Translations under genes and position numbers: made by a program
Shown: one piece after another, positions 6,304 to 34,546 of the stretch
How positions within the stretch are numbered: position 1 is the first letter of the stretch
How the letters are laid out: each line of letters starts with the position of its first letter
The notes under the pieces: model-generated
Database searches by the model: none
Told to the model about the DNA's origin: nothing
The model's input: only the letters and a program-made list of their open reading frames with translations
Source: Candidatus Thermofontivivens primus
GTDB lineage: Bacteria; Sysuimicrobiota; Sysuimicrobiia; Sysuimicrobiales; Thermofontiviventaceae
Reading direction: 5' to 3'
NCBI GenBank assembly: GCA_031458695.1
Contig: JAVKJW010000001.1
Coordinates: 64,001-128,000 of the forward strand
Length of the DNA: 64,000 nucleotides

Positions 6304-6312
6304 CTTCGCCTC

Positions 6313-6884: not shown

Positions 6885-6924
6885 GCACCCACTGCCCTAC
6901 GCGCATTCCTCACATGTTGTTCCC

Positions 6925-8675: not shown

Positions 8676-8726
8676 GCGTTCTCCTCGCTTGCGTACCGAA
8701 AAACCTGTTTGACTCTTGCCTGGGAC

Positions 8727-9610: not shown

Positions 9611-9653
9611 CGGCCTTCCCGGTTCTTCCGATACCGTGCGTGCAATCAAAACT

Positions 9654-9682
9654 ATCTTGGCAGAGAGGATGGAGGATGTCAA
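9654..9682 (-). promoter_or_regulatory. Putative sigma70 promoter of the nuo operon
   Basis: TTGACA-17 bp-CAAGAT with TG extension, upstream of nuoA. Confidence 0.6.
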
Positions 9683-9725
9683 GGCAAGGCGCAGGCTCTG
9701 GCCGTTCTGGGGGGATCACAGGTGC

Positions 9726-10862: not shown

Positions 10863-10948
10863 CGTGGACCCCTCCCTCCACGAACGGCTACAACACCGTG
10901 CAGAGACAGCCGGCGAAAACCTTCAGGACCCCGCACGATGGGAGATAC

Positions 10949-11290
10949 CTACGGCTCGAGATCTTTGACAACGACGGGGAGAGGAAGGGCAACTGCGATC
11001 CGGCGTGGTCTCCGGCGATCGATGATCCACCCCTTCCCCTCACGATGGGAGGTGGAAGCGCGGAGCTTGGCTTTTACTTCCCGCAGAGGGACCTTCCGCT
11101 TGGTGACAAGGTAGCGGATGAATTGTAACCGCTCGATATCCCGCCACGAGTAGAGCCGGAACCCAGTATGACGATCACGATAGGGGCTTACGAGGCCCTT
11201 CGCCTCCCAGGAGCGCAGGGTAGAAGGGGAACACCCAATCAAACCTGCCACCACACCAATGGGGAAAAGCGGTCGGCTTAGATCCCTCAT
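10949..11290 (-). CDS. Short MerR-family (HspR-like) HTH transcriptional regulator
   Basis: IGVVAGLIGCSPSTLRSWEAKGLVSPYR..GFRLYS; GAGGAGG RBS. Confidence 0.85.
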   Translation of the reverse strand: MRDLSRPLFPIGVVAGLIGCSPSTLRSWEAKGLVSPYRDRHTGFRLYSWRDIERLQFIRYLVTKRKVPLREVKAKLRASTSHREGKGWIIDRRRPRRIAVALPLPVVVKDLEP

Positions 11291-11347
11291 GCGTTTGCCT
11301 CCTCAGGATTGATTCCAACTCGAAGGCCCAGTTCTTCCAGAGGGGAA

Positions 11348-11377
11348 CTCTGGCAAAAGTTCAGACTTTTGCCAGAG
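11348..11377. repeat. Perfect 13-bp inverted repeat in the leader of the MerR-type gene
   Basis: CTCTGGCAAAAGT-TCAG-ACTTTTGCCAGAG. Confidence 0.85.
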
Positions 11378-11428
11378 GGATTTTACACAGGGATAGTATA
11401 CCACGGCAGGGATCTCCCTGCGCAGGAG

Positions 11429-11442
11429 CAAACATATGTTCG
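11429..11442. promoter_or_regulatory. Putative LexA (Cheo-type) SOS box
   Basis: CAAAC-ATAT-GTTCG, one mismatch to CGAAC-N4-GTTCG; lies upstream of a TG-n-TATACT -10 element (11395-11403, minus strand). Confidence 0.55.
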
Positions 11443-11452
11443 CTCGTAGGTG

Positions 11453-12277
11453 TTAAGGAAGTGGAAGAGGGGAACGGCTCCGCGCGGTGAAGGTCCAAAT
11501 CTGAGTATACCCGGCTTCCCTGATGAGAGCGAGGATTCTGTCGAAATCCCTCCCCACATGGTCGGGCTCGTGGGCGTCAGAGCTTGGCACCACGGGAACG
11601 CCGAGCCTGGCCAGGATCCTAAGAATCTGTGGGCCAGGATAGACCTCCCTAACAGGCTTGTACCACCCGGCCGAGCTCACCTCCACGCAAACCCCTGCCC
11701 GCCAGAGAACCCGGGCTACCTCCTCATACAGCGCGGTCATCTCCTCAGATGGACGGTACCCGAAGATCTTCACCACATCCACGTGGCCGATCACGTCGAA
11801 AAGTCCTGAAGCAGCGGCCGCCTCAATGTGACGGAAGTACTGGTGGTAGACCTGGGCGGGGTCTTGTCGGTCCCATTCCTCCCGTTCATTGGGGTCATCT
11901 ATGGCCCACCACCTTCTCTCATTGCGCAACCAGTGGACCGAGCCAATAGCATAGTCCCATGGATAGGCTTCAAGGATGCGAGCAACCTCCTCCTCATGGC
12001 CAGGGATGTAGTCCCACTCCATCCCCAGCTTCACAGGAAAACCCAGCTCCTTCGCCTGCTCTACCAGGCGCACATATTCCTCTAATCTCCGCGCCCACTG
12101 GGCATCTATCCAAGGGTTTTCGGTGGGATAGATCCCGCGGCACTCCCGGAAGTGATAGGGGTGTTCACTGAACCCAATCTCCCGGAGCCCGCGCCCTGTG
12201 GCAACGCGCACGAACTCCCTCAGGTAGTCCAGGGAGAAAGGCCCACGCTCTAAGTGGATGTGATAGTCAACAGGCAT
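11453..12277 (-). CDS. PHP-family histidinol-phosphatase (HisJ/HisK-like)
   Basis: Start MPVDYHIH. GFSEH, DYAIGSVH, GHVD and SSDAH motifs. Confidence 0.85.
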   Translation of the reverse strand: MPVDYHIHLERGPFSLDYLREFVRVATGRGLREIGFSEHPYHFRECRGIYPTENPWIDAQWARRLEEYVRLVEQAKELGFPVKLGMEWDYIPGHEEEVARILEAYPWDYAIGSVHWLRNERRWWAIDDPNEREEWDRQDPAQVYHQYFRHIEAAAASGLFDVIGHVDVVKIFGYRPSEEMTALYEEVARVLWRAGVCVEVSSAGWYKPVREVYPGPQILRILARLGVPVVPSSDAHEPDHVGRDFDRILALIREAGYTQIWTFTARSRSPLPLP

Positions 12278-12285
12278 GGCTATCC

Positions 12286-13038
12286 TCAGCGCATCACGAT
12301 CCCGCCGTCGATCACCAGGGTCTGCCCAGTGATATACTCTGCATCCTTCGACGCAAGGAACAGCACGCCTTCTGCAACTTCTTCCGGGAGACCCACACGC
12401 CGGAGGGGGATCGCTGCGGCAAACCTTTGGCGGATCTCCTCGGTCCACTCCTCCGGTTTGCTGTCGATGATCCCAGGGACAACGCAGTTGACGCGCACAG
12501 TAGGGGCTAGTTCGTAGCTCATCCGTTTGGTCAGCATGATCACACCGGCCTTGCTGGCTGCGTAGGGGACAGAGGTATCATAACCGGGGTAAGGGTGCAA
12601 ACCCCCGCCGGAGGCGATATTGATGATGACGCCGGAACCCTGGGCGAGCATCACCCTCGCTGCGGCCTGGGAGCAGAGGAAGGTTCCCTTGAGGTTCGTC
12701 CCTAGGACGAAGTCCCATAACTCCTCGCTCACCTCAAGCAAAGGCTTCGAGGTGAACACCGCGGCATTGTTCACGAGCACATCCAGTCGGCCAAACTTCC
12801 TGACGACCTCCTGGACCATTCCCTCGACATCTCGCCGGTTGCTGACGTCTGCGCGCACGGCGATCGCTTCCCCTCCCGCTTTCTGGATCTCCGCCACGGT
12901 TCGTATGGCGCCCACTTCGGACATACGATAGTTGACCACGACCTTCGCTCCTTCTTGTCCAAAAGCTATGGCGATGGCCCGCCCGATCCCGCGCCCCCCT
13001 CCTGTGACGAGCACGACCTGGTCTTTGAACCTTCCCAT
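12286..13038 (-). CDS. Short-chain dehydrogenase/reductase (FabG-like)
   Basis: TGGGRGIG, NNAA, YAASK, ITGQTLVIDGG. Confidence 0.92.
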   Translation of the reverse strand: MGRFKDQVVLVTGGGRGIGRAIAIAFGQEGAKVVVNYRMSEVGAIRTVAEIQKAGGEAIAVRADVSNRRDVEGMVQEVVRKFGRLDVLVNNAAVFTSKPLLEVSEELWDFVLGTNLKGTFLCSQAAARVMLAQGSGVIINIASGGGLHPYPGYDTSVPYAASKAGVIMLTKRMSYELAPTVRVNCVVPGIIDSKPEEWTEEIRQRFAAAIPLRRVGLPEEVAEGVLFLASKDAEYITGQTLVIDGGIVMR

Positions 13039-13093
13039 GGTCTCCTCCTCAGCGTTTCGGGAAAATTGGATTGTTGTGCATGTGGGGGTAGGG

Positions 13094-13807
13094 TTAAGGC
13101 TGGCCGTGGCGCACGCGCCGCACAAAGACCTCCTTGGCTGGGTGGTCTGAGGTCAGGATTGCCTGGGCGACCTGTTCCCGGTCATACTCGACCCGCCGCA
13201 GCTCCACCTCCCACCCATTCTGGGAATAGGTGAACACGCCATAGCTCGCCCGCGGGTCGCCGTCCAAGGGGAACCCCACACTCCCCACATTGACCAGGAG
13301 GCGATCCCCTACCACTCTCTGGTAGGCTCTGTGAATATGCCCGTAGACAAGCACCTTGCAGGATGCTGCATCCACGGCTCTCCTGGCCTCCTCCTCTGAA
13401 GCATCTGGAAGGAGCGAAGCCTCGATGTCCCATGGGGTGGCGTGGACGAGGACGAGGTCGTCCCCTGTAAGAGAGATCTTGTGGGAGAAAGGGAGCCCTT
13501 CCAGGTAGCGGATGTGTTCTTCCGAGAGATATTTCCTCGTCCACTGCACAAGGGGGGTGGCCATCTGCATCCGCGCCCATCCTTGCACGATCCACTCGTC
13601 GGTATTCCCCCGGATAACCCCGAAGTTCCCGCCCCGGATGCGGTTCACGCACTCCGCTGCGTGCGGGCCACCGAACGCAAGATCCCCGGCGATGAGAATG
13701 GTGTCCACATCTCCCAGTCTCTGGATGTCCTCAAGAACCGCCTCAAGCGCGGGAAGGTTTCCATGGACGTCGGAAAATATGGCAATGCGCATCCTCTCCC
13801 TCCTCAC
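13094..13807 (-). CDS. Calcineurin-like metallophosphoesterase (YfcE/MJ0936-like)
   Basis: SDVHGN, AGD, RGNTD, GHIH, NVGSVG. Confidence 0.9.
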   Translation of the reverse strand: MRRERMRIAIFSDVHGNLPALEAVLEDIQRLGDVDTILIAGDLAFGGPHAAECVNRIRGGNFGVIRGNTDEWIVQGWARMQMATPLVQWTRKYLSEEHIRYLEGLPFSHKISLTGDDLVLVHATPWDIEASLLPDASEEEARRAVDAASCKVLVYGHIHRAYQRVVGDRLLVNVGSVGFPLDGDPRASYGVFTYSQNGWEVELRRVEYDREQVAQAILTSDHPAKEVFVRRVRHGQP

Positions 13808-14427
13808 CCTGAGAACACGACCTCCACGAACCCTTTGATGATCCGGGCGGTCGCGCCCCAGATGACATGTGTTCCATAGTAGTAGAAGTAGAGGGGGACA
13901 GCCCTCCCCTCCACGTACCGGTACGCCGTGCGCAGGTTGTCTTCCTGAAGGAAGAAGCTGAGGGGGACGGTGAGGATCTCGCGGATCTCCCGTGTGTTGG
14001 GTTGGAAGGAGTAAGGATAGGGGATGCGACCGACAAAGGGGGTAATGATGAACCCAGAAACCACCGTCTCCACGTCATCAAGGGTGCCCAGGATGGTCAC
14101 GTCCTCTGGTCGGATCCCCACCTCCTCCTGGGTCTCCCGGAGCACTGTGGCCAGAAGGTCAGGGTCCCCAGCTTCTGCAGCACCTCCGGGGAAAGAGATC
14201 TGCCCCTTGTGGTGCTCAACAGCCTCGGTGCGTCTCGTCAGGAGGAGATACGTCTCATCCTCCTGATGGAAAAGCGGAATCAACACCGCCGCCCGGCGGT
14301 GGCCACGGGCGGTCAAAACCCTGCGCGTCCTCGCAGCCAGGCGTTGCCGAATATGCTCGTCCAGATCTAACCCCATCCCCTGCCAACGCCAGGGAGACCG
14401 ATGTTCCCTCTCCACCTCTTCCCTCAC
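13804..14427 (-). CDS. Nudix hydrolase, CoA pyrophosphatase family
   Basis: AAVLIPL, HKGQISFPGG, LRETQEEVG, IWGATA; GTGA overlaps with both neighbours. Confidence 0.92.
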   Translation of the reverse strand: MREEVEREHRSPWRWQGMGLDLDEHIRQRLAARTRRVLTARGHRRAAVLIPLFHQEDETYLLLTRRTEAVEHHKGQISFPGGAAEAGDPDLLATVLRETQEEVGIRPEDVTILGTLDDVETVVSGFIITPFVGRIPYPYSFQPNTREIREILTVPLSFFLQEDNLRTAYRYVEGRAVPLYFYYYGTHVIWGATARIIKGFVEVVFSG

Positions 14428-23251: not shown

Positions 23252-24088
23252 TTAGAAGTCTTGCTCCTGGAATGCCCGGGTGGCAAGCCACAGAGGGATC
23301 ATCACCCAGGCCACGAGCGAGACAGCGATGAGCGTCTTCCCGAGGACGGACCCGGCCAGTTCCCCAAGGATCGCTCCTCCCGGTCCCAGGGAGGTTTTCG
23401 CTCCCACAAGCATGAGAACCACCACCCGCACTGTGTCCATGGGGTTCGCCAGGACAGAGGAAAGGAGGATCGGCCTCAACCACTCCCCGCCAAAGAGGAT
23501 GGAGACGCCTAGGACCATCAGGTCATAGAGCACGCCAAGGAGGATCCAGAGTGCAAGCGCCCCGCCGAGAGCTTTCATCCTGTTCCTGGCAACAATGGAA
23601 ACCAACGCTCCAAGCCCGAGGAAGACCATGCACAGGAGTATGGAAAGAACCACCAGGACGGCGTATGCCACCAACTCAGAGAGTCCGGCCCTGAGGGCAA
23701 TGACTACCCCGGAGATCCCGAGGGCCCAGAGAAGGCCCGCACTCATGGCCCCGCAAGCCCCAAGGTATTTCCCCACGACCACCTCCCGCCGCGTGATGGG
23801 CTGGGCCAGGAGAACCTCCGTATCCCCTTGCTCTGGGGAAAAGGCCAGGACCCCGAGGGCTAGGGCATTCACAGGGATGAGGAAGGTGATGAGGTTGACT
23901 AAGCTTGTGGCGGTGCGGGCAAATCCCACAAACCGAGCGTATCCCCCGAGGCTCAGACCCAGGTATGAGACCCCTAGCGCCAGGATAGCGAGGAGGAGGG
24001 CGAAGGCCCAAGACCAGCGACTCCTCGCTGTGAGTTCGAATTCCCGGCTGGCAATTTTCCATATCGCTGTCACTACAGCTCCCCTCAC
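23252..24088 (-). CDS. nosY: ABC permease, N2O reductase maturation
   Basis: 6 TM helices, EVLLAQPITRREVVVGKYLG, NPMDTVR; located in the nos cluster. Confidence 0.88.
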   Translation of the reverse strand: MRGAVVTAIWKIASREFELTARSRWSWAFALLLAILALGVSYLGLSLGGYARFVGFARTATSLVNLITFLIPVNALALGVLAFSPEQGDTEVLLAQPITRREVVVGKYLGACGAMSAGLLWALGISGVVIALRAGLSELVAYAVLVVLSILLCMVFLGLGALVSIVARNRMKALGGALALWILLGVLYDLMVLGVSILFGGEWLRPILLSSVLANPMDTVRVVVLMLVGAKTSLGPGGAILGELAGSVLGKTLIAVSLVAWVMIPLWLATRAFQEQDF

Positions 24089-24564
24089 TCCGATCCCTCT
24101 CCTTGCCTACGGACGAACTCGAGGGCCTCATGGAAGGTCCAGATCTTCGCTCCCTCCCCCGCGAACCGCTCCGCCTCTTCCCTGCTGTGGAACGCAAACA
24201 GGCCATAGTACATGGGAGTGTACAAGGACGCGCGGACATAGAAGGCCCCTTCCGCACGGATCCACTGCTTCGTCGTCCAGTCGTGCACAAACATGGCCCG
24301 CACGCCCTCCCCCTGGGGATGGTGTTTCACACGGTAGAGAAGCATGCACCCGATATCACAGAACTTGGCGACGCCCTCCTCGGTCACGAGCTCCGCGGCG
24401 TGCGGTTCCTCCCTGATGACCATCCCGCACTCCGCACACGTCTCCACGCCGAGGAGGATCTGCTTTGGCTTCACCTCCCCTGACCTTTCTCGAAGGTAGG
24501 AGAAGGTGATCACCAATCCTATCGCCACAGCGAAAGCAAGGATCAAGGGATAGACCCGTCGCAT
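24085..24564 (-). CDS. nosL: NosL-family copper chaperone (copy 2)
   Basis: CAECGMVI, FCDIGC, TPMYYG; N-terminal TM anchor. Confidence 0.88.
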   Translation of the reverse strand: MRRVYPLILAFAVAIGLVITFSYLRERSGEVKPKQILLGVETCAECGMVIREEPHAAELVTEEGVAKFCDIGCMLLYRVKHHPQGEGVRAMFVHDWTTKQWIRAEGAFYVRASLYTPMYYGLFAFHSREEAERFAGEGAKIWTFHEALEFVRRQGEGSE

Positions 24565-24571
24565 CGTCCCT

Positions 24572-25063
24572 TCAATGCTGCATCCCTTTCATCATCTTCC
24601 GGCGCTCAACTGCGTACTTCATGGCCTCCTGGAAGGAGAGAACCTTCCCTCCATGTGCCTTGGCGAAAGCTCTGGCATCCTCGGCCTTGCGGAAGGCGAA
24701 CAGGCCATAGGTCATGGGCGTGCGCTGGGAGGTAGAGACGAAGAAGGCGGACCGTCCCTCGATCCATCCCTGCGTCCTCCAATCCCTCACAAGGACCGAG
24801 CGCACCTCCTTTTCAGCGAGGCCATGGGCATGGATGTAGTTAAAGAGGCAACCTAAGTCGTCAAAGCGGAATTGTCCTGCCGCGGTCACGACCACTGCTC
24901 CATGGCGTGCATCCCGGATGACCATGTTGCACAGGGCGCACCGGTCCACTCCCTCCTGGATGAGCGGGATCCTTTCGGGAGGCGCTACCTGCCCGAACAG
25001 AACCAGCGCACCCCCCAGAGTAAGAATCAGAACCACTCCGATTCCTATCGCGGCTCTTCTCAT
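24572..25063 (-). CDS. nosL: NosL-family copper chaperone (copy 1)
   Basis: CALCNMVI, FDDLGC, TPMTYG; N-terminal TM anchor. Confidence 0.88.
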   Translation of the reverse strand: MRRAAIGIGVVLILTLGGALVLFGQVAPPERIPLIQEGVDRCALCNMVIRDARHGAVVVTAAGQFRFDDLGCLFNYIHAHGLAEKEVRSVLVRDWRTQGWIEGRSAFFVSTSQRTPMTYGLFAFRKAEDARAFAKAHGGKVLSFQEAMKYAVERRKMMKGMQH

Positions 25064-25965
25064 TCCTTCTCACTCCCCTTCGATCCTTGAAGGATTTCGT
25101 TCACGACTTCCTCGATATCCGGCTCCTCGGTCGAAAACCCGAGCACACGAACCCCAGCCTCCTGGATCGCCTGCAGCACCCGGAGCCTCTCCCCAGGAGG
25201 ACAGGAAACAATAAGGTGGCCGTCCTCGAAGATTGCAGGATGGCTTGCCAAGCCTGGGATGCTGCAGATCGCTTCATCCGTTGGGACACGCACGCGCAGC
25301 CGCGGCCGGAACCGTTCCCTGAGTGCATCGATCCCATCCTTCACCACAAGCCTGCCCTCTTTCAAGATAGCCACAGAAGTCGCCATCTCCTCACTGTCTT
25401 GGATGACGTGCGAGGAGAAGATCACGATCTTCCCGTTCGCCCGCCACCTTTGGACAATTGTCCGGAGGGCCTGCCTTCCCTCGACGTCGAGGCTCAGGGT
25501 TGGCTCATCCAAAAGAAGAACTGTGGGATCGCCCAGGATAGCCACAGATAGCCCCAGCCGCTGTTTCATCCCCCCTGAATAGGTCCCCACAGGTCTCTGG
25601 AGAAAGTCCTCAAGGCACATGATCTCGACCACCTCCCTCACAGCACTGGGTGGAACGCCGCGGATACTGGCATAGAAGAACAGAATCTCTTCCCCAGCGA
25701 GGGAAGCGGGGAAGTCCACGCGCTGGGGGAGGTAGCCGATGCACCGTTTCGCTTCCTTAGGCTGGCGCCAGGGATCATATCCCTCCACAGAGACACGGCC
25801 GCAGGTGGGCCGCACGAGGCCGGCGAGGATCTTCAAAGTGGTGCTCTTCCCTGCTCCATTGGGACCAAGGAGCGCTAGGACCTCCCCAGGTTCGACGTGG
25901 AAGGAGAGCTCCTCTACGGCCGTGACCTCCCCATACCGCTTCGTCAGACCCTCGACCTGGACCAT
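25060..25965 (-). CDS. nosF: ABC ATP-binding protein, N2O reductase maturation
   Basis: GPNGAGKST, YSGGMKQRLGL, LLLDEP; lies between nosD and nosL/nosY. Confidence 0.9.
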   Translation of the reverse strand: MVQVEGLTKRYGEVTAVEELSFHVEPGEVLALLGPNGAGKSTTLKILAGLVRPTCGRVSVEGYDPWRQPKEAKRCIGYLPQRVDFPASLAGEEILFFYASIRGVPPSAVREVVEIMCLEDFLQRPVGTYSGGMKQRLGLSVAILGDPTVLLLDEPTLSLDVEGRQALRTIVQRWRANGKIVIFSSHVIQDSEEMATSVAILKEGRLVVKDGIDALRERFRPRLRVRVPTDEAICSIPGLASHPAIFEDGHLIVSCPPGERLRVLQAIQEAGVRVLGFSTEEPDIEEVVNEILQGSKGSEKE

Positions 25966-27416
25966 GCTCCAGACCTCCTGCGACCTGCCCTCCACAAAAC
26001 CATTGTGGTCCCAAAGACCAACAAGGCCGCGAAAACCCCACTAGCTTTACTGCCCGGCCGGATGGGCCCAGTTGGGAGGGCGAAGGGGATATCTTCCTGG
26101 CGCATCCGAGGGGAGCGATCCTCTTCCCGCGGGAGCTCCAGGACTGGGAGCGCCTCCTCGGCGAAGGCCAGCGCCCGGACGGCGGGGCTGTGAAATAGGA
26201 TCCGTACCTCTGGGTAGTTCTCGCTGAGGAAACCAAACAGCGAGCCAACTTTGTAAGGAATGTCCCCGGTCCCGTCTCCGTCGAGGTCGTAGCCGCGGTA
26301 ATCGCTCCAGTAGTTGCCTTCCCACCTGTTCAGGAGCCGCCCCCGGTTGAGGTGGACTTGGTCCCCGTTCTCCACGAAGGCATTCCCTGTGAAGAGGTTG
26401 TTGATCGAGCTAGAGAGAATCCTAGCGCCAATGGTGTTGGCCGCAATGAGATTACGGCGGATACGATTCTCCCTGCTGTTGTCCATAAAGATACCGACCT
26501 CGTTGTCCACGATGCTGTTTTCTTCAATGAGAGAATCCTCACAGTCCTTCAGGAAAAGGCCGTAGGCGCCATAGCCGCGACTGTGGGCAAACAGGTTCCT
26601 GCGCGCCACGATGCGCTTCGCGTACATGGGTGCGGCCGCCACGCCGTTGTACTGGAAGACATTTCCCTCGAAGGTATTGTCGTCGGAGTACATGTAGTGG
26701 AGGCCAATACGCCCATAGAGCACGTAGTTACCGCGGATGCGGTTCCCATTGGAGAACTCGAAGTACAGACCGTCGCGGGGGTACAAAATCATGTTTCCTT
26801 CGATGTGGTTCCTATGGGAGCCAAACAAGTGAATGGCATTCCCCCTGTCGTGTTCACCGACCCCAAGACCTTGGATCCGGTTCCCCACGATGGTGTTCCC
26901 ACTCGCCCCAAGCAGGAAGATGCCAAAGAGCGCATTCGTAATCTCGTTCCCGCGGATGGTGTTGTGATCGCCAAGGACCTTCACAGCTGCCTCGTTCCTC
27001 CACAGCCGCCGCCCGCTCCCCCGGATGATGAACCCTTGGACGGTGGCACCCCCTGCTTTGATGGTGAGGACGTCTCCCTGGCCGCCCCCGTCCACCACCG
27101 GCCTCCCCTCACCCACCAGCCGCACCGCCTTGGAAATCACCAACCGCTCACGATAGACTCCCGGCTGGACGAGGATGGTATCTCCCTCGTGCGCGCGGAC
27201 GAGAGCCTGGCCAATCGTTGCGAATCCCTCCCTTCCCACAATCCAGGTATGTCCCCGCCCTTCCTCCTGCAGAAACGCCTTCCCACCTTCCTCCCTTATG
27301 GGAGAGGATACACGGGAGAGAGGGGGTGTAGGTGCGCCCTGGATCGTAGCCCACGGACTCGCCGCGGCAGTCCAAGCAAGGAGGAGCGATGTTAGGAACG
27401 CGATCTTCCGCGCCAT
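25944..27416 (-). CDS. nosD: N2O reductase maturation protein NosD (beta-helix)
   Basis: Start MARKIAF with signal peptide. RGNAIHL, RDGLYFE, GLHYMYS, GNYWSDYRGYDLDGDGTGDIPY. Confidence 0.93.
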   Translation of the reverse strand: MARKIAFLTSLLLAWTAAASPWATIQGAPTPPLSRVSSPIREEGGKAFLQEEGRGHTWIVGREGFATIGQALVRAHEGDTILVQPGVYRERLVISKAVRLVGEGRPVVDGGGQGDVLTIKAGGATVQGFIIRGSGRRLWRNEAAVKVLGDHNTIRGNEITNALFGIFLLGASGNTIVGNRIQGLGVGEHDRGNAIHLFGSHRNHIEGNMILYPRDGLYFEFSNGNRIRGNYVLYGRIGLHYMYSDDNTFEGNVFQYNGVAAAPMYAKRIVARRNLFAHSRGYGAYGLFLKDCEDSLIEENSIVDNEVGIFMDNSRENRIRRNLIAANTIGARILSSSINNLFTGNAFVENGDQVHLNRGRLLNRWEGNYWSDYRGYDLDGDGTGDIPYKVGSLFGFLSENYPEVRILFHSPAVRALAFAEEALPVLELPREEDRSPRMRQEDIPFALPTGPIRPGSKASGVFAALLVFGTTMVLWRAGRRRSGAWSRSRV

Positions 27417-27985
27417 GGGCTTGACCTCCAGAAGGCCAGCACGACCAGGACGAAGGCGATCACGTGGAGCAACGTCCCCACATGGAATGTCGCGGAAGTG
27501 ATGAAGTTGGCCAAGCGCTGGCTCCCTAGGATCGGAGGTGTGAACGGAGGCACCCGGATGGGCGCGTCGGGATCGAGCGTGTGACCGTACAGGTATAAAC
27601 GGTACCACAGATCCAGGATCCCAAGAAGGGCTACGGGCGCGAGGACGATGAGGAGAAAGGGAATCCAGCGCCTGCCCGTCCACGCCGCCACTGTGGCAAG
27701 GAGGGCCACACCCAGGAAGGCTACTGGGATGAGTCGAAGCTCTGGGAAGTCCTCGGGCCGGATCTCCCGCATCCCCACGTAGTGGTTTAAGGTGTTAATA
27801 ATGTCCAGCTTCCCCCTCAGCCCCCAGGCATAGACGGCGAGGGTGAGTCCCTCTGGGTACTGAGGAGCGATGAGCCTCACCTGCCACAGGGGGAAGGCGA
27901 ACGAGAGAAGGACCAGAGCGGCGGAAAAGAGCAAGAGGCGGCGCTCCCACCTCCCGAGCTCTCCGCGCCCAATCCATCCCATCAT
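27392..27985 (-). CDS. nosB: Clade II nos membrane protein NosB
   Basis: PLW..L.APQYPEGL, INTLNHYVGM, YGHTLDPDAPI, PPILG; directly downstream of nosZ. Confidence 0.85.
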   Translation of the reverse strand: MMGWIGRGELGRWERRLLLFSAALVLLSFAFPLWQVRLIAPQYPEGLTLAVYAWGLRGKLDIINTLNHYVGMREIRPEDFPELRLIPVAFLGVALLATVAAWTGRRWIPFLLIVLAPVALLGILDLWYRLYLYGHTLDPDAPIRVPPFTPPILGSQRLANFITSATFHVGTLLHVIAFVLVVLAFWRSSPWRGRSRS

Positions 27986-28090
27986 CCTAGCTCCACCTCG
28001 CTTTTGGAGAGTGTGGTGTCGCGAACACAGGCAGAGGAGGGTGCCCCTTGGGCATCCCTCCCCCTGCCGCTTTGGCCTTTCGTTTTCGTG

Positions 28091-29929
28091 TTACTTCTTT
28101 GGTTTCACCAAAAGGTATCCCTGCATCTCCTGGTGCAGCGCGGAACAGAAGTTGGTGCAGTAGAACGGGTAGACACCTGGTTTTTCCGCTACAATGGAGA
28201 TTGTCTTTGTTTCCCCGGGCTGGATCTCCATGTTCACGTTGTACAGGGAGATCCCAAACCCATGGGTTAAGTCCTCATCCAGGTCGTTATTGGTGATGTG
28301 GAAGAAGACCCGGTCCCCCTGGTTCACTTCCACGTTGTCGGGAACGTAGCGGCTGCGGATGGCGTACATGTAAACGTGGACCTCGTTCCCCTTGCGCTCG
28401 ATGCGAGCATCCTTGGGGCTCCACACCGAATTGGGGCGCTTGGTTTCTTTGGGGTGGATCTCGATGGCCTTGATCTTATCCGCCTTGACGATCTGGGCAT
28501 AGTGGGGCTCGGGGTCGACAGGGGCATCGGCGATGACGCGCATCTTCCCACCAGCGATGTCGATGAGTTGCAGACTCTCAGGATGCGACGGTCCCACACT
28601 CAAGAACCGGTCCTTAGCCATCTTGTTGAGCGAGACCAGGTACTTGCCATCTGGAGAAGCGGAGTCTCCTTCCGCCGCGGCCAAGTGGCCAACGTTGTAG
28701 TTGATCTGCACCTTGTCCACGACCTTCCAGGTACCCAGCTGCCACTTAGCGATGGCGCTGTCCAAGAAGAGGCTCGTGTAGGCGAACCCTTTGTCGTCGA
28801 ACTGGGTGTGGAGTGGACCAAGGCCCACAGGCACCTCGGCCACGCGCACAGATTCGTAGTTGAGCACAGGAAGCCCGCGCACCGTGCCCGCGAAGTCTTT
28901 CTTCTGGATCGCCTCCTGGATCTTGGCGAATTCGTAGACGGTTACCGTGGGCTGGAGCTTGCCACTGGCCACAATGAACCGCCCATCAGGAGAGACGTCC
29001 ACACCGTGTGGGCTCTTCGCCACTGGGATCAGGTACACGAGCCCGGGGACCTTCGTGGGATCCACGACTTTCACTCCGGCGATGGCGGTAAACTTGCCCG
29101 CCTTGACGGCCTTCTCGACTTCTCTCCAGTTCAAGACAATGATGTAGTCGCGGTCGTTCTTGGAGGCGTTCTTCTCGAGCACTGTGGTGGCTTCCTCGGT
29201 GTTGTAGGTGGTGAGGAAAGCCCACCCCTCGCTCACCTTCTTCCCTGCGTCGGAGAGGTCATACTGCCATGGTGGGAGGAGGAGCTCCCACCCTACGCTC
29301 ATCTCCCCGGTCTTCGGATCCACAGCGATGGCTGCAAGCACGCCGAAATATTTCTTCCCGTACTCAGAGAGGGGGGCATAGGTTCCAGTAGGGATGGGGG
29401 CGGAAAAGCGGCTCGGCATCATAAAGTACTCTGTATTCGGGGTGACGAAGGCGGCGCAGTGGGGGCCCATGATGTTCGGCACAGGTCCGAGGATTTGACC
29501 TACGGTGAAGGTCTTCAGGTCAATGCGGGCAACACGGTTGTTGGCATTATCATTGACAAAAAGCCACCGCCCGTCATACTCACCCCTGGTCTCCGAGAGA
29601 GCAGGGTGGTGGACATCACCCCACGTGTACCCTCCAAGCATCCTCTTGGAGTGTTCGTCGTACCCCCACCCTGTGGCGGGATCGGGAGTAAAGACGGGGA
29701 TGGTGCGGATCCGTCGCATGGAGGGAATTCCAAAAACGTAGACCTGTCCGGAATGCCCTCCAGAGGCGAACATGTAATACTCATCGAGCTTACCTGGAGG
29801 GACAAACGCCTTTCCAGGTTCCTGGGCTCCACTCTCCCTCCCTCCCAGCTGAGGAAGGACAATGGCCAAGGCGATGACGACAAGCGTCACCGCTCCGAGG
29901 ATCCCGGCGGACTTCACCCTTCTCCTCAT
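28091..29929 (-). CDS. nosZ: Nitrous oxide reductase, clade II (Sec-type or membrane-anchored)
   Basis: SGGHSGQ; CuZ histidines in DVHHP, GPHC, KSPHG, GPLHT, VGHL and EPHY; CuA ligands THGF and CTNFCSALHQEM; no twin-arginine consensus. Confidence 0.97.
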   Translation of the reverse strand: MRRRVKSAGILGAVTLVVIALAIVLPQLGGRESGAQEPGKAFVPPGKLDEYYMFASGGHSGQVYVFGIPSMRRIRTIPVFTPDPATGWGYDEHSKRMLGGYTWGDVHHPALSETRGEYDGRWLFVNDNANNRVARIDLKTFTVGQILGPVPNIMGPHCAAFVTPNTEYFMMPSRFSAPIPTGTYAPLSEYGKKYFGVLAAIAVDPKTGEMSVGWELLLPPWQYDLSDAGKKVSEGWAFLTTYNTEEATTVLEKNASKNDRDYIIVLNWREVEKAVKAGKFTAIAGVKVVDPTKVPGLVYLIPVAKSPHGVDVSPDGRFIVASGKLQPTVTVYEFAKIQEAIQKKDFAGTVRGLPVLNYESVRVAEVPVGLGPLHTQFDDKGFAYTSLFLDSAIAKWQLGTWKVVDKVQINYNVGHLAAAEGDSASPDGKYLVSLNKMAKDRFLSVGPSHPESLQLIDIAGGKMRVIADAPVDPEPHYAQIVKADKIKAIEIHPKETKRPNSVWSPKDARIERKGNEVHVYMYAIRSRYVPDNVEVNQGDRVFFHITNNDLDEDLTHGFGISLYNVNMEIQPGETKTISIVAEKPGVYPFYCTNFCSALHQEMQGYLLVKPKK

Positions 29930-29978
29930 GGCACTGCCCCCTTTCTGTGCGGGCGGTTGATCCCACCCCATTTCGTTG

Positions 29979-30374
29979 TTATGGCTCGACAATGAGCTGG
30001 CCGACCATGTTCTGGTGGCTTGGACTGCACTTGATGTTGCACTGGAAGGGAAACGTTCCTTCTTCGCTTGCCACGAACTCCACGACCACGGGTTGCCCGG
30101 GGAAGATCAAATCGGTGTCGATGTCGTAATCCAGGAGTTGGAAACTGTGGGTCACGTCGTAGCTCATGAGCTTCAGACGCACCCTCTCCCCTTTGCGCAC
30201 CACGATCCTCGCTGGCTGGAAGCCGCCATGCTCAAAGGTATGGATGATGACGGTGATCTCCCGGACCCCTTCTGGGTGAGGCTTCTCCTTGAACTGGTAG
30301 GCGAAGATCCCCACAGGCAGGAGCACCACGATGGCGAAGACCACAATTGCCGCCACCACATCCGCTCTCCGCAT
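29979..30374 (-). CDS. Membrane-anchored CuA-type cupredoxin (CoxII-like domain)
   Basis: N-terminal TM helix; DVTHSF and CNIKCSPSHQNM (H..C-x3-C-x3-H-x2-M). Confidence 0.85.
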   Translation of the reverse strand: MRRADVVAAIVVFAIVVLLPVGIFAYQFKEKPHPEGVREITVIIHTFEHGGFQPARIVVRKGERVRLKLMSYDVTHSFQLLDYDIDTDLIFPGQPVVVEFVASEEGTFPFQCNIKCSPSHQNMVGQLIVEP

Positions 30375-30425
30375 CCCTTTTCCTCCTTAACCAACGACGA
30401 CAGGCGAGAAGGTGACTGGGTGATT

Positions 30426-31886
30426 CTACCCCAGGTACAGCGCCAGGAACACCAAGGTCCCTCCGATCAGATATGCTGTGAGAGGTACAGACGCTTTCCG
30501 CGCCTGCGCTTCCTCAAAGGTCTTGTGCAAAATCCCCGTACCGACAAAAACCGACCAGGCTAGCCCCACAAGCAACAAGGGGACCTGCAGGTAGGGGACG
30601 ATGCCAGGAGCATAAGGGGTCCAGGGATAGCTCTTCGTCCCGAAGAGGTCCCATCCCCAGCCAAAGGGATCTGACAGCACCGAGACGGCGTAGGAGATGT
30701 TGGGGAGGACGAACGCCAAGCTGAAGGCGATCCACCCGAACAGCCCCAGGGGGACGAGCGCATAACTCGTGTTCACGAAGACTTCAGAGAGGGGCACAGA
30801 GCGGGTTCCAGCAATTTTCCGCACCAGGGCGCTCATCCCCAGGTGAAGGCCTGGGGCAAGGACGAGGATGGAGCCAAGGAACATCCCGGCGTATCCAAGG
30901 AAGCCCCAACCTCCAAGGTTCGCCCAGCTCTTGAGAGTTCCCCACGGGCCGATCATGATGATGGAATACAGGATGGCGCTCCCCAGCATGATGAAGGCCT
31001 TGAACGCTTCGTCAAGTTTCCACCCCTTCTCCACCAGGAGATCCGTCCCGAATGGTCGCAGGTTGATGGTGATGTTCCCATAAGGGCAGGCCTTCACGCA
31101 CTCGGTGCAGAGGAGGCAGTAGGTGTTCCGTTCCATCCCCCCGCCCGGGAACTCGAAGTTGGGACAGCCATACCCGCCGATCCCTCCGACCTTGAGGCTC
31201 TCGGGGGTGCTGCCACGGTAACAGGATTTGAACCGGCACTGGCGGCAGACTTCTGCGTCGATCCGCCGGAGCTCTACGGGAGCAGCCATGGAGTAAAGCC
31301 CTAGGAACCCGCCCACGGGGCAAAGATAGCGGCAGAAGGCCCTGCGCTCGAACACCAGGTGCATGACCACCGCCACGGCCATGAGCCCTAGGAGAAGGAA
31401 CCCTGTCACCACGGGCCGCGTGGTCACAATCGGGCTGAACAGCGCGATGGTGAGGAAGCCGAAGTTGGCAAGCCACAGGTTCCTGAGCTGGCGGGGCCAT
31501 CTCTTGCCAAGGCCTAACCCTTGGCTGACGAAGCTCACGAAACTCTTGCGCTGTAGCCACTCCCCGAAGGCTGGGATGGGGCACATGGCGCACCATACCC
31601 TCGCCCCGAAGGGGACAAGAACGACGATCAAGAGGGCCCACCAGACGATCCAGACGAAGATGATGGAAAAGTTCTTGGCCCCCACGGGGATACCGAAGAT
31701 CCCAGAGAGGATGACGATGGTGAAGGCCAGGAGGTTGGGGACGATGAGGGTAAACTGGAACCACCTTTGGAAGACAAGCCAACGCAGGAAGGGTGCGAGC
31801 TGGAGGAGGTCCCTCTTCCAGCCTATCTTGACAGGCTTTGTTTCCGCGACCCGGGTAACCTTGGCCCCTACCGCCTCGTCGTCCAC
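30426..31886 (-). CDS. Polytopic membrane 4Fe-4S protein (NapH/NosH-like)
   Basis: WCAMCP and FCRYLCP (C-x3-C-P), CRQC..C..CP, CLLCTECVKACP; many TM helices. Confidence 0.85.
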   Translation of the reverse strand: MDDEAVGAKVTRVAETKPVKIGWKRDLLQLAPFLRWLVFQRWFQFTLIVPNLLAFTIVILSGIFGIPVGAKNFSIIFVWIVWWALLIVVLVPFGARVWCAMCPIPAFGEWLQRKSFVSFVSQGLGLGKRWPRQLRNLWLANFGFLTIALFSPIVTTRPVVTGFLLLGLMAVAVVMHLVFERRAFCRYLCPVGGFLGLYSMAAPVELRRIDAEVCRQCRFKSCYRGSTPESLKVGGIGGYGCPNFEFPGGGMERNTYCLLCTECVKACPYGNITINLRPFGTDLLVEKGWKLDEAFKAFIMLGSAILYSIIMIGPWGTLKSWANLGGWGFLGYAGMFLGSILVLAPGLHLGMSALVRKIAGTRSVPLSEVFVNTSYALVPLGLFGWIAFSLAFVLPNISYAVSVLSDPFGWGWDLFGTKSYPWTPYAPGIVPYLQVPLLLVGLAWSVFVGTGILHKTFEEAQARKASVPLTAYLIGGTLVFLALYLG

Positions 31887-31889
31887 GGT

Positions 31890-32345
31890 TTAGGCCTCCT
31901 TCCTCCACCAGGCATAGCCAAGAGCAACCACCCCCACCACCATGGCCAAAAACGCCGAACCCGCCAAGGGGATGTTCGGGCGGACGATGATCTCCCCCAC
32001 CATGAAGGGATGGAGGGGACCGCAGATAGCCGAGCAACGGTACCGGATCTTCCCAGGGCGATTGGCCACGAAGGTGATCTCCGCCTCCTCCTGTGGGGGG
32101 ACCTTTACGTCAATGCCGTAGCCATCGATGTAGACGCCGTGGGTGATATCTTCCGAGCGTACCCGCAGGATCGCAGTATCGCCCAGGTTCACTGTGATCC
32201 TCGGAGGGTCAAAGGCGAACTGCCGAGCAGTAATTTCAAACTCTCGCTCGGTGGGGGCAGGACGGTGCACCCAGGCGAATCCTGCCGCGGCAGCGCCCAA
32301 GACGATGATGGCAATTCCAATAAAGAAAAACCTGTTCCTCTGCAT
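31890..32345 (-). CDS. CuA-type cupredoxin with N- and C-terminal TM helices
   Basis: DITHGV and CSAICGPLHPFM; hydrophobic segments at both ends. Confidence 0.85.
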   Translation of the reverse strand: MQRNRFFFIGIAIIVLGAAAAGFAWVHRPAPTEREFEITARQFAFDPPRITVNLGDTAILRVRSEDITHGVYIDGYGIDVKVPPQEEAEITFVANRPGKIRYRCSAICGPLHPFMVGEIIVRPNIPLAGSAFLAMVVGVVALGYAWWRKEA

Positions 32346-32455: not shown

Positions 32456-32475
32456 TGTTGCAACATTTTGTTGCA
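32456..32475. promoter_or_regulatory. Putative NtrC-type operator upstream of the nos operon
   Basis: TGTTGCAACATTTTGTTGCA, containing TGCAACA-N3-TGTTGCA. Confidence 0.6.
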
Positions 32476-32533: not shown

Positions 32534-33871
32534 TTACGTGGGCTTTTGGATCCCCAGCTTTTTCATCTTCCGCCAGAGGGTTGTCCTGTTGACCCCGAGG
32601 AGCTTGGCACAGCGACCGATGCGCCAGTGGGTAGCTTCCAGCATCGCCAGGATGCGCTCCCGCTCGCTGGTAGGAGACCTCGGGTTAGGTTCTCCCTGGC
32701 GTTGCTGAGGACGGGCGTACATGTGGGGAGGAAGGTGGGTGGGGAGGATCTCCCCTCCCCTGCAGAGGGCGAAGGCATAGCTCAGGATACCTTCCAGCTC
32801 CCTTACGTTACCGGGAAAGTCGTAGCTCAAGAGGAGGGAGAGGGCGTCCTGGGAGATCCCCGTGACCGACGGGTTCACCTCTGCCCGCAGGCGGTTCATC
32901 AAGCGCTCCGCCAGGAGAGGGATGTCCTCTTTTCGCTCCCGCAAAGGGGGGACGGCCAAGGTGATCCGTAGGAGGCGATCGGCGAGAGTCCTGTCAAACC
33001 GCCCCTCCTGGGCCAGGGCAGCGAGGTCCCGGCTCGTGCCAGCGAGGAATCTCGCATCGGAGGTGAGGACCTCGCGGCCGCCCACCCTGCTGAATCCTCC
33101 CCCATCGAGGAAGATGCGCAGCCGCTCTTGGAGCTGCGGGGATGTCTCAGCCACGTCCTCCAGGAAGACGCTCCCTCCCCGGCACAGCTCCAGGGCCCCC
33201 GGCCGGCCTGATGTGGCCCCTGGAAAGGCACCCTCCACGAACCCGAATAGCTCCCGCTCAAGAATCACTTCGGAGATTCCAAGGGTTCGCAGAGAGATGA
33301 ACACTCCTCCTGCCTTCAAGCTCATCCGGTGGATCGTCTCGGCTACCCAAGCTTTCTCCGTTCCCGGCTCCCCCAGGATGAGCACGGGCTCCGTGCTGTC
33401 GCGGATGTTCTCGATGGCCTCGTACAATCGGATCATCCCCTCGCTCCGCCCGCACAAGAATCCGAACTCCTTGCGCGTGCCGGCCTCCCTCTCCAGCGCC
33501 CGAAGGGCGGTTACGTCGCGGAGGATGCGCACCGCCGCAACAATGCGTCCCTTCCGGTCTCGCACGGGGACGGTGTGCACGCGGACGATACGGATCCCTC
33601 CGTCCTTGCGGAAGAGGAAGGTCTCGAAGTCGTCGGGGGCCTTCCCCGTCTCGAACATCTCCTGCATGTCGCATGTCCTCTGACAGAACCGCCCCGCGCA
33701 TACCTCAAAGCACCGTCTCCCCAAAGCCTCGTCCTTGCGGTAACCCGTCAGCCGTTCGGCAGCGCGGTTGAACCCTACCACACACAGCTCCCCGTCCACG
33801 GTCATGACCCCGTCCTCCATGGCGTCGAGGACGGATTCATAGCTGACGGTCTCCCGGGCACGCCACAGCAT
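32534..33871 (-). CDS. PAS-AAA+-Fis HTH (NtrC-family) transcriptional regulator with degenerate sigma54/ATPase motifs
   Basis: PAS domain with CFEVCAGRFCQRTC; GEPGTEK, ELFG..GAFPGA, FLEDV, PPLRERKEDI, FPGNVREL; HTH LGVNRTTLWRKMK. Confidence 0.9.
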   Translation of the reverse strand: MLWRARETVSYESVLDAMEDGVMTVDGELCVVGFNRAAERLTGYRKDEALGRRCFEVCAGRFCQRTCDMQEMFETGKAPDDFETFLFRKDGGIRIVRVHTVPVRDRKGRIVAAVRILRDVTALRALEREAGTRKEFGFLCGRSEGMIRLYEAIENIRDSTEPVLILGEPGTEKAWVAETIHRMSLKAGGVFISLRTLGISEVILERELFGFVEGAFPGATSGRPGALELCRGGSVFLEDVAETSPQLQERLRIFLDGGGFSRVGGREVLTSDARFLAGTSRDLAALAQEGRFDRTLADRLLRITLAVPPLRERKEDIPLLAERLMNRLRAEVNPSVTGISQDALSLLLSYDFPGNVRELEGILSYAFALCRGGEILPTHLPPHMYARPQQRQGEPNPRSPTSERERILAMLEATHWRIGRCAKLLGVNRTTLWRKMKKLGIQKPT

Positions 33872-33875
33872 TCCC

Positions 33876-34517
33876 TCATCCCTCCAAGATGCCCTTCATC
33901 AGGGCATACCGGACGAGTTCTGCTCGGCTCTGTAACCCAAGCTTCTCCATGATCCTGGCCTTATAAGCCTCCACCGTCTTGACGCTCAGGTGGAGCTGGC
34001 TTGCGATCTCCTTGTTCCCATAGCCAAGAGCCACGAGGCGGAGCACCTCGCGCTCCCTGGTGCTCAGTTCCTCCCTGCTAGTCCCCCCGTTTCGGATGAA
34101 CGAGTGCACAAGGACATGCGCAAGGGAAGGATCCACATAGACGCCCCCGGCATAGACAGTGCGAATGGCGTGGCACAGCTCGCTGGCAGGGGACTGCTTC
34201 ACCAGGTACCCAGACGCCCCCGCCCTCAGGAGGTAGCGGAGGTAGAGCTCGTCGGCGTGGATCGTGAGGACGAGGACCTTCACCTGGGGAACTGCTTCCT
34301 TGATGCGCTCCGTGGCCTCGATCCCGTTCATCCCGGGCATGCTGATGTCCATGAGGACGACATCTGGCACCAGGGTTTTGCACTTTTCATAAGCTTCCCA
34401 ACCGTTTGAGGCCTCGCCCACCACCACCATGTCGGCCTGGGATTCCAGGAGTGCGCGAAATCCAGCGCGAACCACTGCATGATCTTCGGCAATGAGGATC
34501 CGGATCTTCTCCTCCAT
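33876..34517 (-). CDS. NarL/FixJ-family response regulator (NreC-like)
   Basis: AEDHAVVRAGF, VLMDISMP, GASGYLVK, LSTREREVL..GYGNKEIA..SVKTVE. Confidence 0.93.
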   Translation of the reverse strand: MEEKIRILIAEDHAVVRAGFRALLESQADMVVVGEASNGWEAYEKCKTLVPDVVLMDISMPGMNGIEATERIKEAVPQVKVLVLTIHADELYLRYLLRAGASGYLVKQSPASELCHAIRTVYAGGVYVDPSLAHVLVHSFIRNGGTSREELSTREREVLRLVALGYGNKEIASQLHLSVKTVEAYKARIMEKLGLQSRAELVRYALMKGILEG

Positions 34518-34546
34518 CCTCCCAATCGCCCCTTTCGGGAACACTC

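Follow-up and report, generated by a model that had tools for sequence, protein, structure and literature searches.

A candidate NosR-like electron conduit with CuA-type cupredoxins encoded upstream of a clade II nosZ in Candidatus Thermofontivivens primus

Nitrous oxide (N2O) reductase, NosZ, is to our knowledge the only biological sink for the greenhouse gas N2O. How this enzyme receives its electrons has yet to be settled, also in the case of NosR and NosGH. Herein, a nosZ locus was studied within a 64-kb window (the whole stretch of DNA under study) from the hot-spring bacterium Candidatus Thermofontivivens primus. In this window, nosZ is preceded by three genes, which are assigned to a CuA-type cupredoxin (Cup1), a polytopic Fe-S protein and a second CuA-type cupredoxin (Cup2). 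It is proposed, with a probability of about 0.55, that the trio feeds electrons to NosZ and that its products form one membrane complex, encoded ahead of nosZ, which carries electrons across the membrane. On the best reading of the data, the trio encodes a transmembrane conduit for electrons that is NosR-like, has CuA heads and was recruited to nosZ.

Known electron donors and the gene row around nosZ

NosR combines a periplasmic flavin mononucleotide (FMN) domain and transmembrane (TM) helices with two 4Fe-4S clusters in the cytoplasm, and it is a proposed donor of NosZ (PMC7660919). It has been reported that whole cells need it for activity and that the state of the CuZ center depends on it, in contrast to copper insertion (PMC7660919, PMC13685413). 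In the Wolinella-type clade II clusters, where NosGH occurs with NosC1/C2, a membrane Fe-S protein is proposed to feed NosZ (PMC13685413, PMC3475470). In Bacillota, nosC is placed directly upstream of nosZ (PMC3475470, PMC11388526). In the available part of a 2026 review of N2O reductase, cytochromes and NosHG are the only donors given for clade II (PMC13685413).

The genes of the locus form a single tightly packed row at 23252-32345, in which all genes are on the minus strand and the intergenic spacing ranges from -14 to 105 nt. The order is Cup1, the Fe-S protein (486 aa), Cup2, nosZ, a NosB-like gene, nosD, nosF, nosL, a second nosL and nosY. Family scans and hydropathy confirmed the order given by the original prediction, which was a CuA cupredoxin with two TM segments, the Fe-S protein, a CuA cupredoxin with one TM segment and then nosZ-B-D-F-L-L-Y. 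The genes of the trio and nosZ are as follows.

31890..32345, minus strand: Cup1, putative membrane-anchored CuA-type cupredoxin, 151 aa (Cupredoxin_1, 37 bits; COX2, 29 bits, cut-off 22)
30426..31886, minus strand: polytopic Fe-S protein, 486 aa, about nine TM segments (Fer4_5, 39 bits)
29979..30374, minus strand: Cup2, putative CuA-type cupredoxin, 131 aa, without a haem domain (COX2, 27.7 bits, cut-off 22)
28091..29992, minus strand: nosZ, Sec-type (clade II), with TIGR04246, nos_propeller and a C-terminal CuA domain

NosZ scored 914.7 bits on the Sec-type model TIGR04246 (cut-off 625), which places it in clade II, compared with 507.5 bits on the twin-arginine (TAT)-type model, under the cut-off of 625. 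The nosB-type gene with four TM segments directly downstream of nosZ is the second mark of clade II. The likely start of nosZ is the ATG at 29929, which is preceded by a purine-rich stretch and leaves 49 nt to Cup2.

No CxxCH motif was found in the open reading frames (ORFs) of the window; the six-frame translation contains two such strings, neither of them in an ORF of at least 50 aa. The cluster ORFs scanned gave no match to cytochrome, Rieske, FMN_bind or ApbE families. No NapG/NosG-type ferredoxin was found in the cluster, where every ORF is otherwise assigned. The six-frame and family scans thus bear out the earlier claim that CxxCH, NosG, NosR, NosX and Rieske/cytochrome b are absent from the cluster.

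The locus resembles NosR in having a polytopic protein with CxxxCP-type motifs and two cytoplasmic 4Fe-4S motifs, an outer redox domain and a position beside nosZ (PMC7660919). The head-plus-base layout of NosR is also reproduced by natural fusions of Cup1 to the Fe-S protein. Unlike in NosR, the predicted head is a CuA cupredoxin instead of an FMN domain, a second CuA protein is added, and the base is extended by five C-terminal TM segments and has an invariant outer loop, SDPFGWGWDL. The structural features of NosR (membrane core, CxxxCP motifs and two cytoplasmic 4Fe-4S motifs) are all present in the Fe-S protein. Its score on the NosR model was 15 bits (cut-off 1000), and no FMN_bind domain, such as the N-terminal FMN domain of NosR, was found in it.

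The common feature with NosGH and NapGH is the membrane Fe-S protein; the difference is that the cluster has no NosG/NapG ferredoxin and no cytochrome, and that two predicted CuA proteins are the carriers. NosC, which is found in Bacillota and their relatives, is likewise a small membrane-tethered carrier encoded in the same slot upstream of nosZ (PMC3475470, PMC11388526), whereas Cup2 has a cupredoxin fold with predicted binuclear copper in place of haem c and comes with two further genes. By analogy, the locus would work most like NosR or NosGH plus NosC, yet it fell outside all three in the membership tests.

Cup2 also matches subunit II of haem-copper oxidases in fold and in all ligands (Thermus ba3, 2cua). 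In the caa3 type, subunit II carries a fused cytochrome c in the order TM, CuA, cytochrome c, which is the order of the common Cup2 fusion described below. The partner in the trio is instead an Fe-S membrane protein. An oxidase subunit I gene adjoined the trio in 0 of 13 annotated loci, and no such family was prominent among the recurrent neighbors.

Pseudoazurin and azurin are type-1 cupredoxin donors of N2O reductase. Copper donors to this enzyme are as such already known, and the locus is not new in kind in this respect. The shared features are the use of small copper proteins as NosZ donors and the plastocyanin-type genes in nos clusters of this phylum. In contrast to the mononuclear type-1 sites, the sites of Cup1 and Cup2 are predicted to be binuclear CuA, and the two proteins are membrane-anchored and predicted to be fixed in a complex. 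Another CuA-forming cupredoxin is PmoD of methane and ammonia oxidizers, with its site across a homodimer. It is similar in having a CuA site outside oxidases and NosZ, and different in that Cup1 and Cup2 each have a complete single-chain ligand set.

A literature search that covered few subscription journals returned no description of the module, and this agrees with the earlier statement that the pathway was not recognized as characterized.

Predicted structure of the trio and the slot upstream of nosZ

Both cupredoxins exceeded the Pfam COX2 gathering cut-off, and the ligand pattern H ... C-x3-C-x3-H-x2-M is complete in both. The ligand set is H69 with C104-SAI-C108-GPL-H112-PF-M115 in Cup1 and H76 with C112-NIK-C116-SPS-H120-QN-M123 in Cup2. 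All five ligand residues of Cup1 (H69, C104, C108, H112 and M115) were invariant in 35 of 35 aligned homologues, and those of Cup2 (H76, C112, C116, H120 and M123) were invariant in 30 of 30. Among solved structures, the CuA domain of the Thermus ba3 oxidase (2cua, E 7e-10) matches Cup2 best and agrees with it ligand for ligand. Judged from score and ligands, Cup1 and Cup2 belong to the COX2-type CuA domain family, and both probably bind copper. Cup1 has an N-terminal and a C-terminal hydrophobic segment, while Cup2 has one N-terminal hydrophobic anchor. Hydropathy and charge put the copper domain of Cup1 and the cupredoxin domain of Cup2 outside.

The topology of the Fe-S protein was predicted in the same way, with the N-terminus inside and a 116-residue cytoplasmic loop that contains two 4Fe-4S-type motifs. 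The cysteines of these motifs are C214/C222/C241 with C257-x2-C260-x2-C263-x3-C267-P. One CxxCP (C99-x2-C102-P) and one CxxxCP (C185-x3-C189-P) are located near the inner face. In 36 aligned Fe-S proteins, eleven cysteines and the outer loop S405-L414 (SDPFGWGWDL) were invariant, and no histidine was invariant in the base. Because of the lack of an invariant histidine, no haem b is expected in the base.

Residues 88-271 of the Fe-S protein match the NapH/MauN family at E 8e-11. The NapH/NosH models gave 42 bits for TIGR02163 (cut-off 213) and 30.3 bits for NF007013 (cut-off 234), so the protein is outside this family. The earlier description as NapH/NosH-like is right in that this is a membrane Fe-S protein with Fer4_5; the likeness is distant, given the 42 bits on TIGR02163 and about nine TM segments rather than the four of NapH. 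The protein appears to be distantly NapH/NosR-like by sequence. The AlphaFold2 model of the protein alone had a predicted local distance difference test score (pLDDT) of 89.2 and a predicted template modeling score (pTM) of 0.88. Among solved structures, the sequence search gave ferredoxin-motif matches only (E about 0.5), and Foldseek gave 0 matches at E <= 0.001. The wide structural search returned generic helical-bundle matches to the C-terminal helices only (best Z 10.2 over 117 residues). In the Protein Atlas, the nearest clusters were labeled as 'hypothetical protein' with Fer4_5.

Complex modeling, which the original prediction had suggested as a check, was run on the trio. Cup1, the Fe-S protein and Cup2 were folded together with custom alignments, and Cup2 was scored. 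The score of Cup2 was 0.74 (runs 0.73, 0.74 and 0.76), compared with 0.01 for the best of three controls. At least 94% of contacts agreed between runs, and the partner pLDDT was at least 81. The score mark is attained by 116 of 157 solved complexes and by 2 of 215 mismatched pairs, and it is a rough guide for three chains with custom alignments. In the model, residues 72-75 and 114-117 of Cup2 lie against residues 66-68 and 106-109 of Cup1, and these contacting stretches include the His ligand and the second Cys ligand of each CuA. The helix of Cup2 packs against TM1 of the base and also against residues 408-411 of the invariant loop. The modeled ternary complex supports, and as a prediction does not prove, a fixed complex with both copper centers face to face.

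A metagenome scan with NosZ returned 11 loci. In the metagenome locus L121 (NosZ 95% identical), the whole order is repeated from the activator gene upstream of Cup1 through nosY, and the gene order of the window is also kept in the locus L001 (NosZ 79% identical). Among the metagenome loci with NosZ 54-69% identical and upstream sequence, 7 of 8 have an ORF with one CxxCH motif directly upstream of nosZ, and five of these seven ORFs gave weak cytochrome c matches. One locus shows no CxxCH ORF, and two are cut upstream of nosZ. Since this slot holds nosC or a one-haem ORF in relatives, the cytochrome appears to have been replaced in place by Cup2 and its two partners in the window, L121 and L001.

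Three further loci show independent links to nos. In L074, from an archaeal metagenome-assembled genome (MAG), nosZ is divergent from Cup1. In L050, at a contig end, nosF-Y-L, a cytochrome c gene, SCO1 and PCuAC are followed by the trio. In L109 (contig C9 of genome G081, another family of the same phylum), a Cup2-like CuA gene, 49% identical, lies 3 nt from nosZ, and the genome has no match to the Fe-S protein. The L109 locus links NosZ to the Cup2 type and not to the trio as a whole.

The stretch L109:7971-12385 encodes a 326-aa two-domain multicopper protein (Cu-oxidase_3 and Cu-oxidase_2), which has the size of a copper nitrite reductase, followed by a cupredoxin-like ORF, the Cup2-like gene and nosZ. 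In 5 of 12 other nos loci examined in the phylum, a plastocyanin/azurin-type gene is upstream of nosZ. An Rrf2-family regulator gene is just upstream of nosZ in five of the 12 phylum loci (L110, L112, L113, L115 and L117), often with a plastocyanin/azurin-type cupredoxin, and no cytochrome c gene was seen beside nosZ in these five.

In the proposed mechanism, the base would be a nine-TM protein of the NapH/NosR superfamily with two 4Fe-4S-type motifs facing the cytoplasm. Cup1 would be on the outer face with two TM helices, at the place of the FMN domain of NosR. Cup2 would be anchored beside Cup1 by one helix, with the two CuA centers facing each other. Electrons would pass from a cytoplasmic reductant or menaquinol to the Fe-S base, to CuA of Cup1, to CuA of Cup2, to CuA of NosZ and then to CuZ. 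Beside the observed gene content, motifs, conservation, fusions and synteny, we infer the electron direction, the electron source and the docking to NosZ. In this lineage, the module would stand in for the NosC-type cytochrome as well as for the NosR or NosGH of other nos clusters. In many phyla, it would be a general-purpose conduit, usually with cytochrome c on Cup2, that was recruited to nos a few times. Each step at this locus would be a spectroscopically distinct predicted center (Fe-S, CuA, CuA, CuA and CuZ); these distinct centers and the predicted fixed complex make the path testable. The originally proposed all-copper relay from the Fe-S protein through two CuA proteins to NosZ is favored by the conserved trio, the Cup1::Fe-S fusions, the modeled CuA contact and the slot. 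Quinol as the source is less well supported, and the module is not specific for nos.

Distribution of the module and its possible roles

The Fe-S protein was scanned against one genome per species, and 428 relatives were found; the locus counts given here are for the best 80 of these 428. All 80 loci are from MAGs, and their labels include Chloroflexota, Rokubacteria/Methylomirabilota, Acidobacteriota, Planctomycetota, Gemmatimonadota, Bacillota, FCPU426 and two archaeal groups. The Fe-S gene is preceded by a separate CuA cupredoxin gene in 63 loci and carries a CuA cupredoxin as a fusion in 11; in 6, a contig end intervenes. Downstream, a CuA cupredoxin is present in 66 of 77 assessable loci, and in 63 of the 77 its CuA motif is followed by one for cytochrome c. 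The downstream cupredoxin without haem is the rare form (3 of 77; L001, L050 and L069, labeled as a set Clostridia, Bacillota and Nitrososphaerales). The other outcomes among the 80 loci are a cupredoxin-like ORF without the strict motif (8), nothing (3) and a cut contig (3). The CuA plus cytochrome c architecture was confirmed by Pfam in all six proteins scanned from the Cup2 position, with the order TM, CuA, cytochrome c. These data indicate that the three genes have been kept together as a unit in many phyla, with their CuA ligand sets intact.

The synteny expected from the original prediction is present in part. The trio itself is conserved and its order with nosZ is kept in L121 and L001, while the module is not nos-specific. 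Similarly, nos neighborhoods with CuA cupredoxins and a Fer4_5 protein and without cytochrome c were found in L001 and L121, but they are rare, and most module loci are without nosZ.

Some module loci have other genes nearby. In Rokubacteria/Methylomirabilota-labeled loci (L003:974-3737 and L013:6608-9365, also L007, L014, L023 and L048), a YVTN beta-propeller of 313-315 aa is ahead of the Cup1::Fe-S fusion, and the downstream cupredoxin is without the strict CuA motif. The propeller was considered as a split lactonase-type NosZ and rejected as a generic YVTN propeller, with 103-115 bits on the L-NosZ model (cut-off 700). In L053:3536-7259, from a Planctomycetota-labeled MAG, an arsenite-oxidase-like molybdoenzyme (Rieske_3 and Molybdopterin) precedes the module, and the upstream cupredoxin has an N-terminal cytochrome c. 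The L053 locus gives a hint that the module may also work with periplasmic enzymes that oxidize substrates.

Several observations weigh against the trio as the NosZ donor. Among the 80 loci, a true nosZ adjoins the trio only in L001 and L074. In the phylum of this bacterium, which is covered by 94 species genomes of one order, 14 genomes have the Fe-S family and 28 have NosZ, and this genome is the only one in which the Fe-S protein and NosZ are paired as here. Seven same-phylum genomes have a 48-50% identical Fe-S protein, and none of the seven has a NosZ match. The Fe-S family is missing from 25 of 27 other NosZ genomes of the phylum; in the NosZ genomes G003 and G008, the Fe-S relatives are 33-38% identical and on other contigs. 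Ten carrier genomes from other phyla gave a NosZ match above the cut-off in two, a split match below the cut-off in one and none in seven. The genome also contains haem c ORFs, from 2 motifs upward, that include ORFs with 12, 9, 8, 8, 7 and 5 motifs, as well as at least one membrane-anchored single-motif (monohaem) ORF. Three cytochrome b matches were found, two of which adjoin Rieske matches. It is possible that the NosZ donor is encoded elsewhere in the genome. The base would moreover have to pass electrons across the membrane without haem b. With regard to expression, no RNA dataset was among those listed as containing the stretch; the listed datasets are DNA sequencing runs of hot-spring metagenomes (6 studies), and some of them may be the source. 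The original term cytochrome-free is thus true of the cluster; it does not apply to the genome, with its cytochromes c and Rieske/cytochrome b, or to the usual Cup2, which is fused to cytochrome c (63 of 77).

These genomic data could be read to mean that the trio is a general periplasmic electron module and that its adjacency to nosZ is of little significance. Bulk electrons would then reach NosZ via Rieske/cytochrome b and subsequently via cytochromes c or other cupredoxins encoded elsewhere. The three cytochrome b matches (two with Rieske), the 9- and 5-haem ORFs that adjoin one Rieske/cytochrome b pair on contig C4, and the membrane-anchored monohaem ORF are consistent with this route, as is the occurrence of the module in many genomes without nosZ and of a second trio in this genome without adjoining nosZ. 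Going by its title, a 2017 paper of Hein et al. reportedly found that N2O respiration in Wolinella requires a Rieske/cytochrome bc complex. This reading is nevertheless considered unlikely: the trio is tightly packed with nosZ in one apparent operon, the gene order is preserved in L121 and L001, Cup2 is exactly in the slot of the one-haem ORF of the nearest NosZ relatives, and the 64-kb window is without a cytochrome gene.

In the genome (96% complete), no match to FMN_bind was found, and Fer4_5 occurs only in the Fe-S protein and one paralogue. This indicates that no other NosR/NapH-type protein is available to NosZ. The genome also contains four haem-copper oxidase-family genes.

The second trio (L083) is located on contig C54, 70000-89000, at 4997-14365 on the minus strand, and its Fe-S protein is 68% identical. 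Next to this trio come a plastocyanin-type gene, two pairs of histidine kinase and NarL regulator genes, and two cupredoxin genes flanking an unidentified ORF. The row ends with a 4Fe-4S dicluster protein and an NrfD-type membrane protein, and nosZ is not adjoining. The row looks like a second copper-based quinol module.

The analogy with NosR also brings in a maintenance role, in which the module would keep or re-activate NosZ (the CuZ state) by a trickle of electrons and would not be the main donor. This role would fit the NosR-like layout, the reported need of NosR for activity and the CuZ state (PMC7660919, PMC13685413), and the other candidate bulk donors in the genome. It is judged quite improbable, in that three serial redox domains, with cytochrome c fused in most members, resemble a throughput chain. 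Furthermore, the module is common in genomes without NosZ, and therefore it cannot be a NosZ-specific activator in general.

The wider family was examined by an exhaustive search of 1.84 billion cluster representatives, which gave 1877 relatives of the Fe-S protein at E <= 0.001, 299 of them at E <= 1e-30. With 299 cluster representatives at the stricter level, the base protein defines a large family. Within the best 150 representatives, the chain itself includes the strict CuA motif in 26 cases and CxxCH in 5. The combination of Fer4_20 and Pyr_redox_2 is the kind of module found in NAD(P)H-linked Fe-S flavoproteins. It is present in 6 of 17 long members scanned (P0004, P0014, P0021, P0024, P0032 and P0143). 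In P0004, the one member aligned, the flavoprotein module lies between query residues 239 and 234 of two aligned halves. This position is inside the cytoplasmic Fe-S domain, and the same chain has an N-terminal CuA cupredoxin. P0004 and P0021 thus both combine a CuA motif near the N-terminus with an NAD(P)H-oxidoreductase module in one chain. Alternative domains include an N-terminal cytochrome c (P0042), c554-type domains (P0092 and P0118) and AhpC/TSA (P0020 and P0021).

Judged from domain composition, the family is a base with interchangeable outer redox heads, and some members appear to have a built-in cytoplasmic NAD(P)H entry, as expected of a transmembrane electron conduit. The NAD(P)H-oxidoreductase inserts imply that the electron source may be cytoplasmic, not quinol. 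The case for quinol as the source, as named in the original prediction, is weakened by them, and the NAD(P)H-oxidoreductase fusions without cytochrome point to a cytoplasmic donor in some members. The Fe-S protein of the window has no flavoprotein insert.

The neighbors of the module raise the question of copper handling. The commonest extra neighbor is a PCYCGC-motif protein encoded upstream of Cup1 (39 of 80 loci), and SCO1/SenC, PCuAC, thioredoxin-like and rubrerythrin-like genes as well as two-component systems are present in some loci. CcoG, a Fer4_5 protein, is a cupric reductase. By comparison, the module might be a cupric reductase or a copper-delivery system for cuproenzymes and not an electron wire, and the PCYCGC, SCO1/SenC, PCuAC and thioredoxin-like neighbors and the AhpC/TSA domains fused in P0020 and P0021 would fit such a role. 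SCO1 and PCuAC are, in addition, known assembly factors for CuA sites, which would account for their presence. Against this role stand the invariant full binuclear CuA ligand sets, the cytochrome c fused to Cup2 (63 of 77 loci), the occurrence of cytochrome heads and of NAD(P)H-oxidoreductase inserts in the family, and the juxtaposition of the two CuA loops in the model. CcoG/FixG was not among the NCBIfam or Pfam matches at E <= 0.01, in a library whose holding of a CcoG model is unconfirmed. Overall, copper handling is regarded as very improbable.

With the trio taken as an electron conduit, the exchangeable heads (CuA, cytochrome c and c554-type) and the optional NAD(P)H module suggest general haem-b-free electron export. 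A broader proposal is made tentatively, with somewhat less than even confidence. The trio may represent a widespread and so far unrecognized class of respiratory complex, a haem-b-free electron-export conduit with a NapH/NosR-type base and two serial CuA centers outside. In some members, NAD(P)H oxidation in the cytoplasm and a periplasmic CuA would be combined in a single polypeptide, and the class would be an alternative feed to periplasmic reductases such as NosZ. Cup1 and Cup2 would then be the first natural free-standing CuA carriers, with the first protein-to-protein transfer from CuA to CuA. If confirmed, such a conduit would also illuminate NosR, NapH and the RdhC proteins of organohalide respiration.

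Accessory nos genes and upstream regulators

The remaining genes of the row and the two regulator genes upstream of Cup1 are as follows.

27392..27985, minus strand: NosB-like membrane protein with four TM segments (four hydrophobic segments)
25944..27683, minus strand: nosD (TIGR04247, 398 bits, cut-off 300, and Pfam NosD; likely start M90 at 27416, from the translation)
25060..25995, minus strand: nosF, ATP-binding cassette (ABC) ATPase (ABC_tran, 103.8 bits, and place in the cluster)
24572..25063, minus strand: nosL, copy 1 (Pfam NosL, 57.5 bits)
24085..24564, minus strand: nosL, copy 2 (Pfam NosL, 52.1 bits)
23252..24088, minus strand: nosY, ABC-2 permease (ABC2_membrane_2, 92.9 bits)
32534..33871, minus strand: activator with PAS, sigma-54-type AAA+ and Fis helix-turn-helix regions (Pfam domains), directly upstream of Cup1
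33876..34544, minus strand: NarL/LuxR-type response regulator, upstream of the activator (Response_reg and GerE)

The NosB-like ORF gave no family match in the Pfam and NCBIfam scans. Its homologues (35-51% identity) are directly 3' of nosZ in L001, L074, 9 of 12 same-phylum loci and 8 of 9 metagenome loci, the last count being of loci with the nosZ 3' end present. The copy in L121 is 87% identical. The two nosL genes form a tandem pair (24085-25063) with 39% mutual identity, and L121 likewise has two. The remainder of the 64-kb window is occupied by housekeeping genes (complex I, cobalamin, thiamine and rhamnose genes).

The same activator gene precedes Cup1 in L121 (88% identity) and L001 (45%). 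A sigma-54 promoter ahead of Cup1 was considered and rejected: the consensus scan gave 21 matches compared with 23.5 expected by chance, and none was in the 188-nt gap. A perfect inverted repeat, TGCAAC-AAAAT-GTTGCA, is located at 32459-32475, about 113 nt upstream of the Cup1 start and before the activator gene, and it is a possible regulator site.

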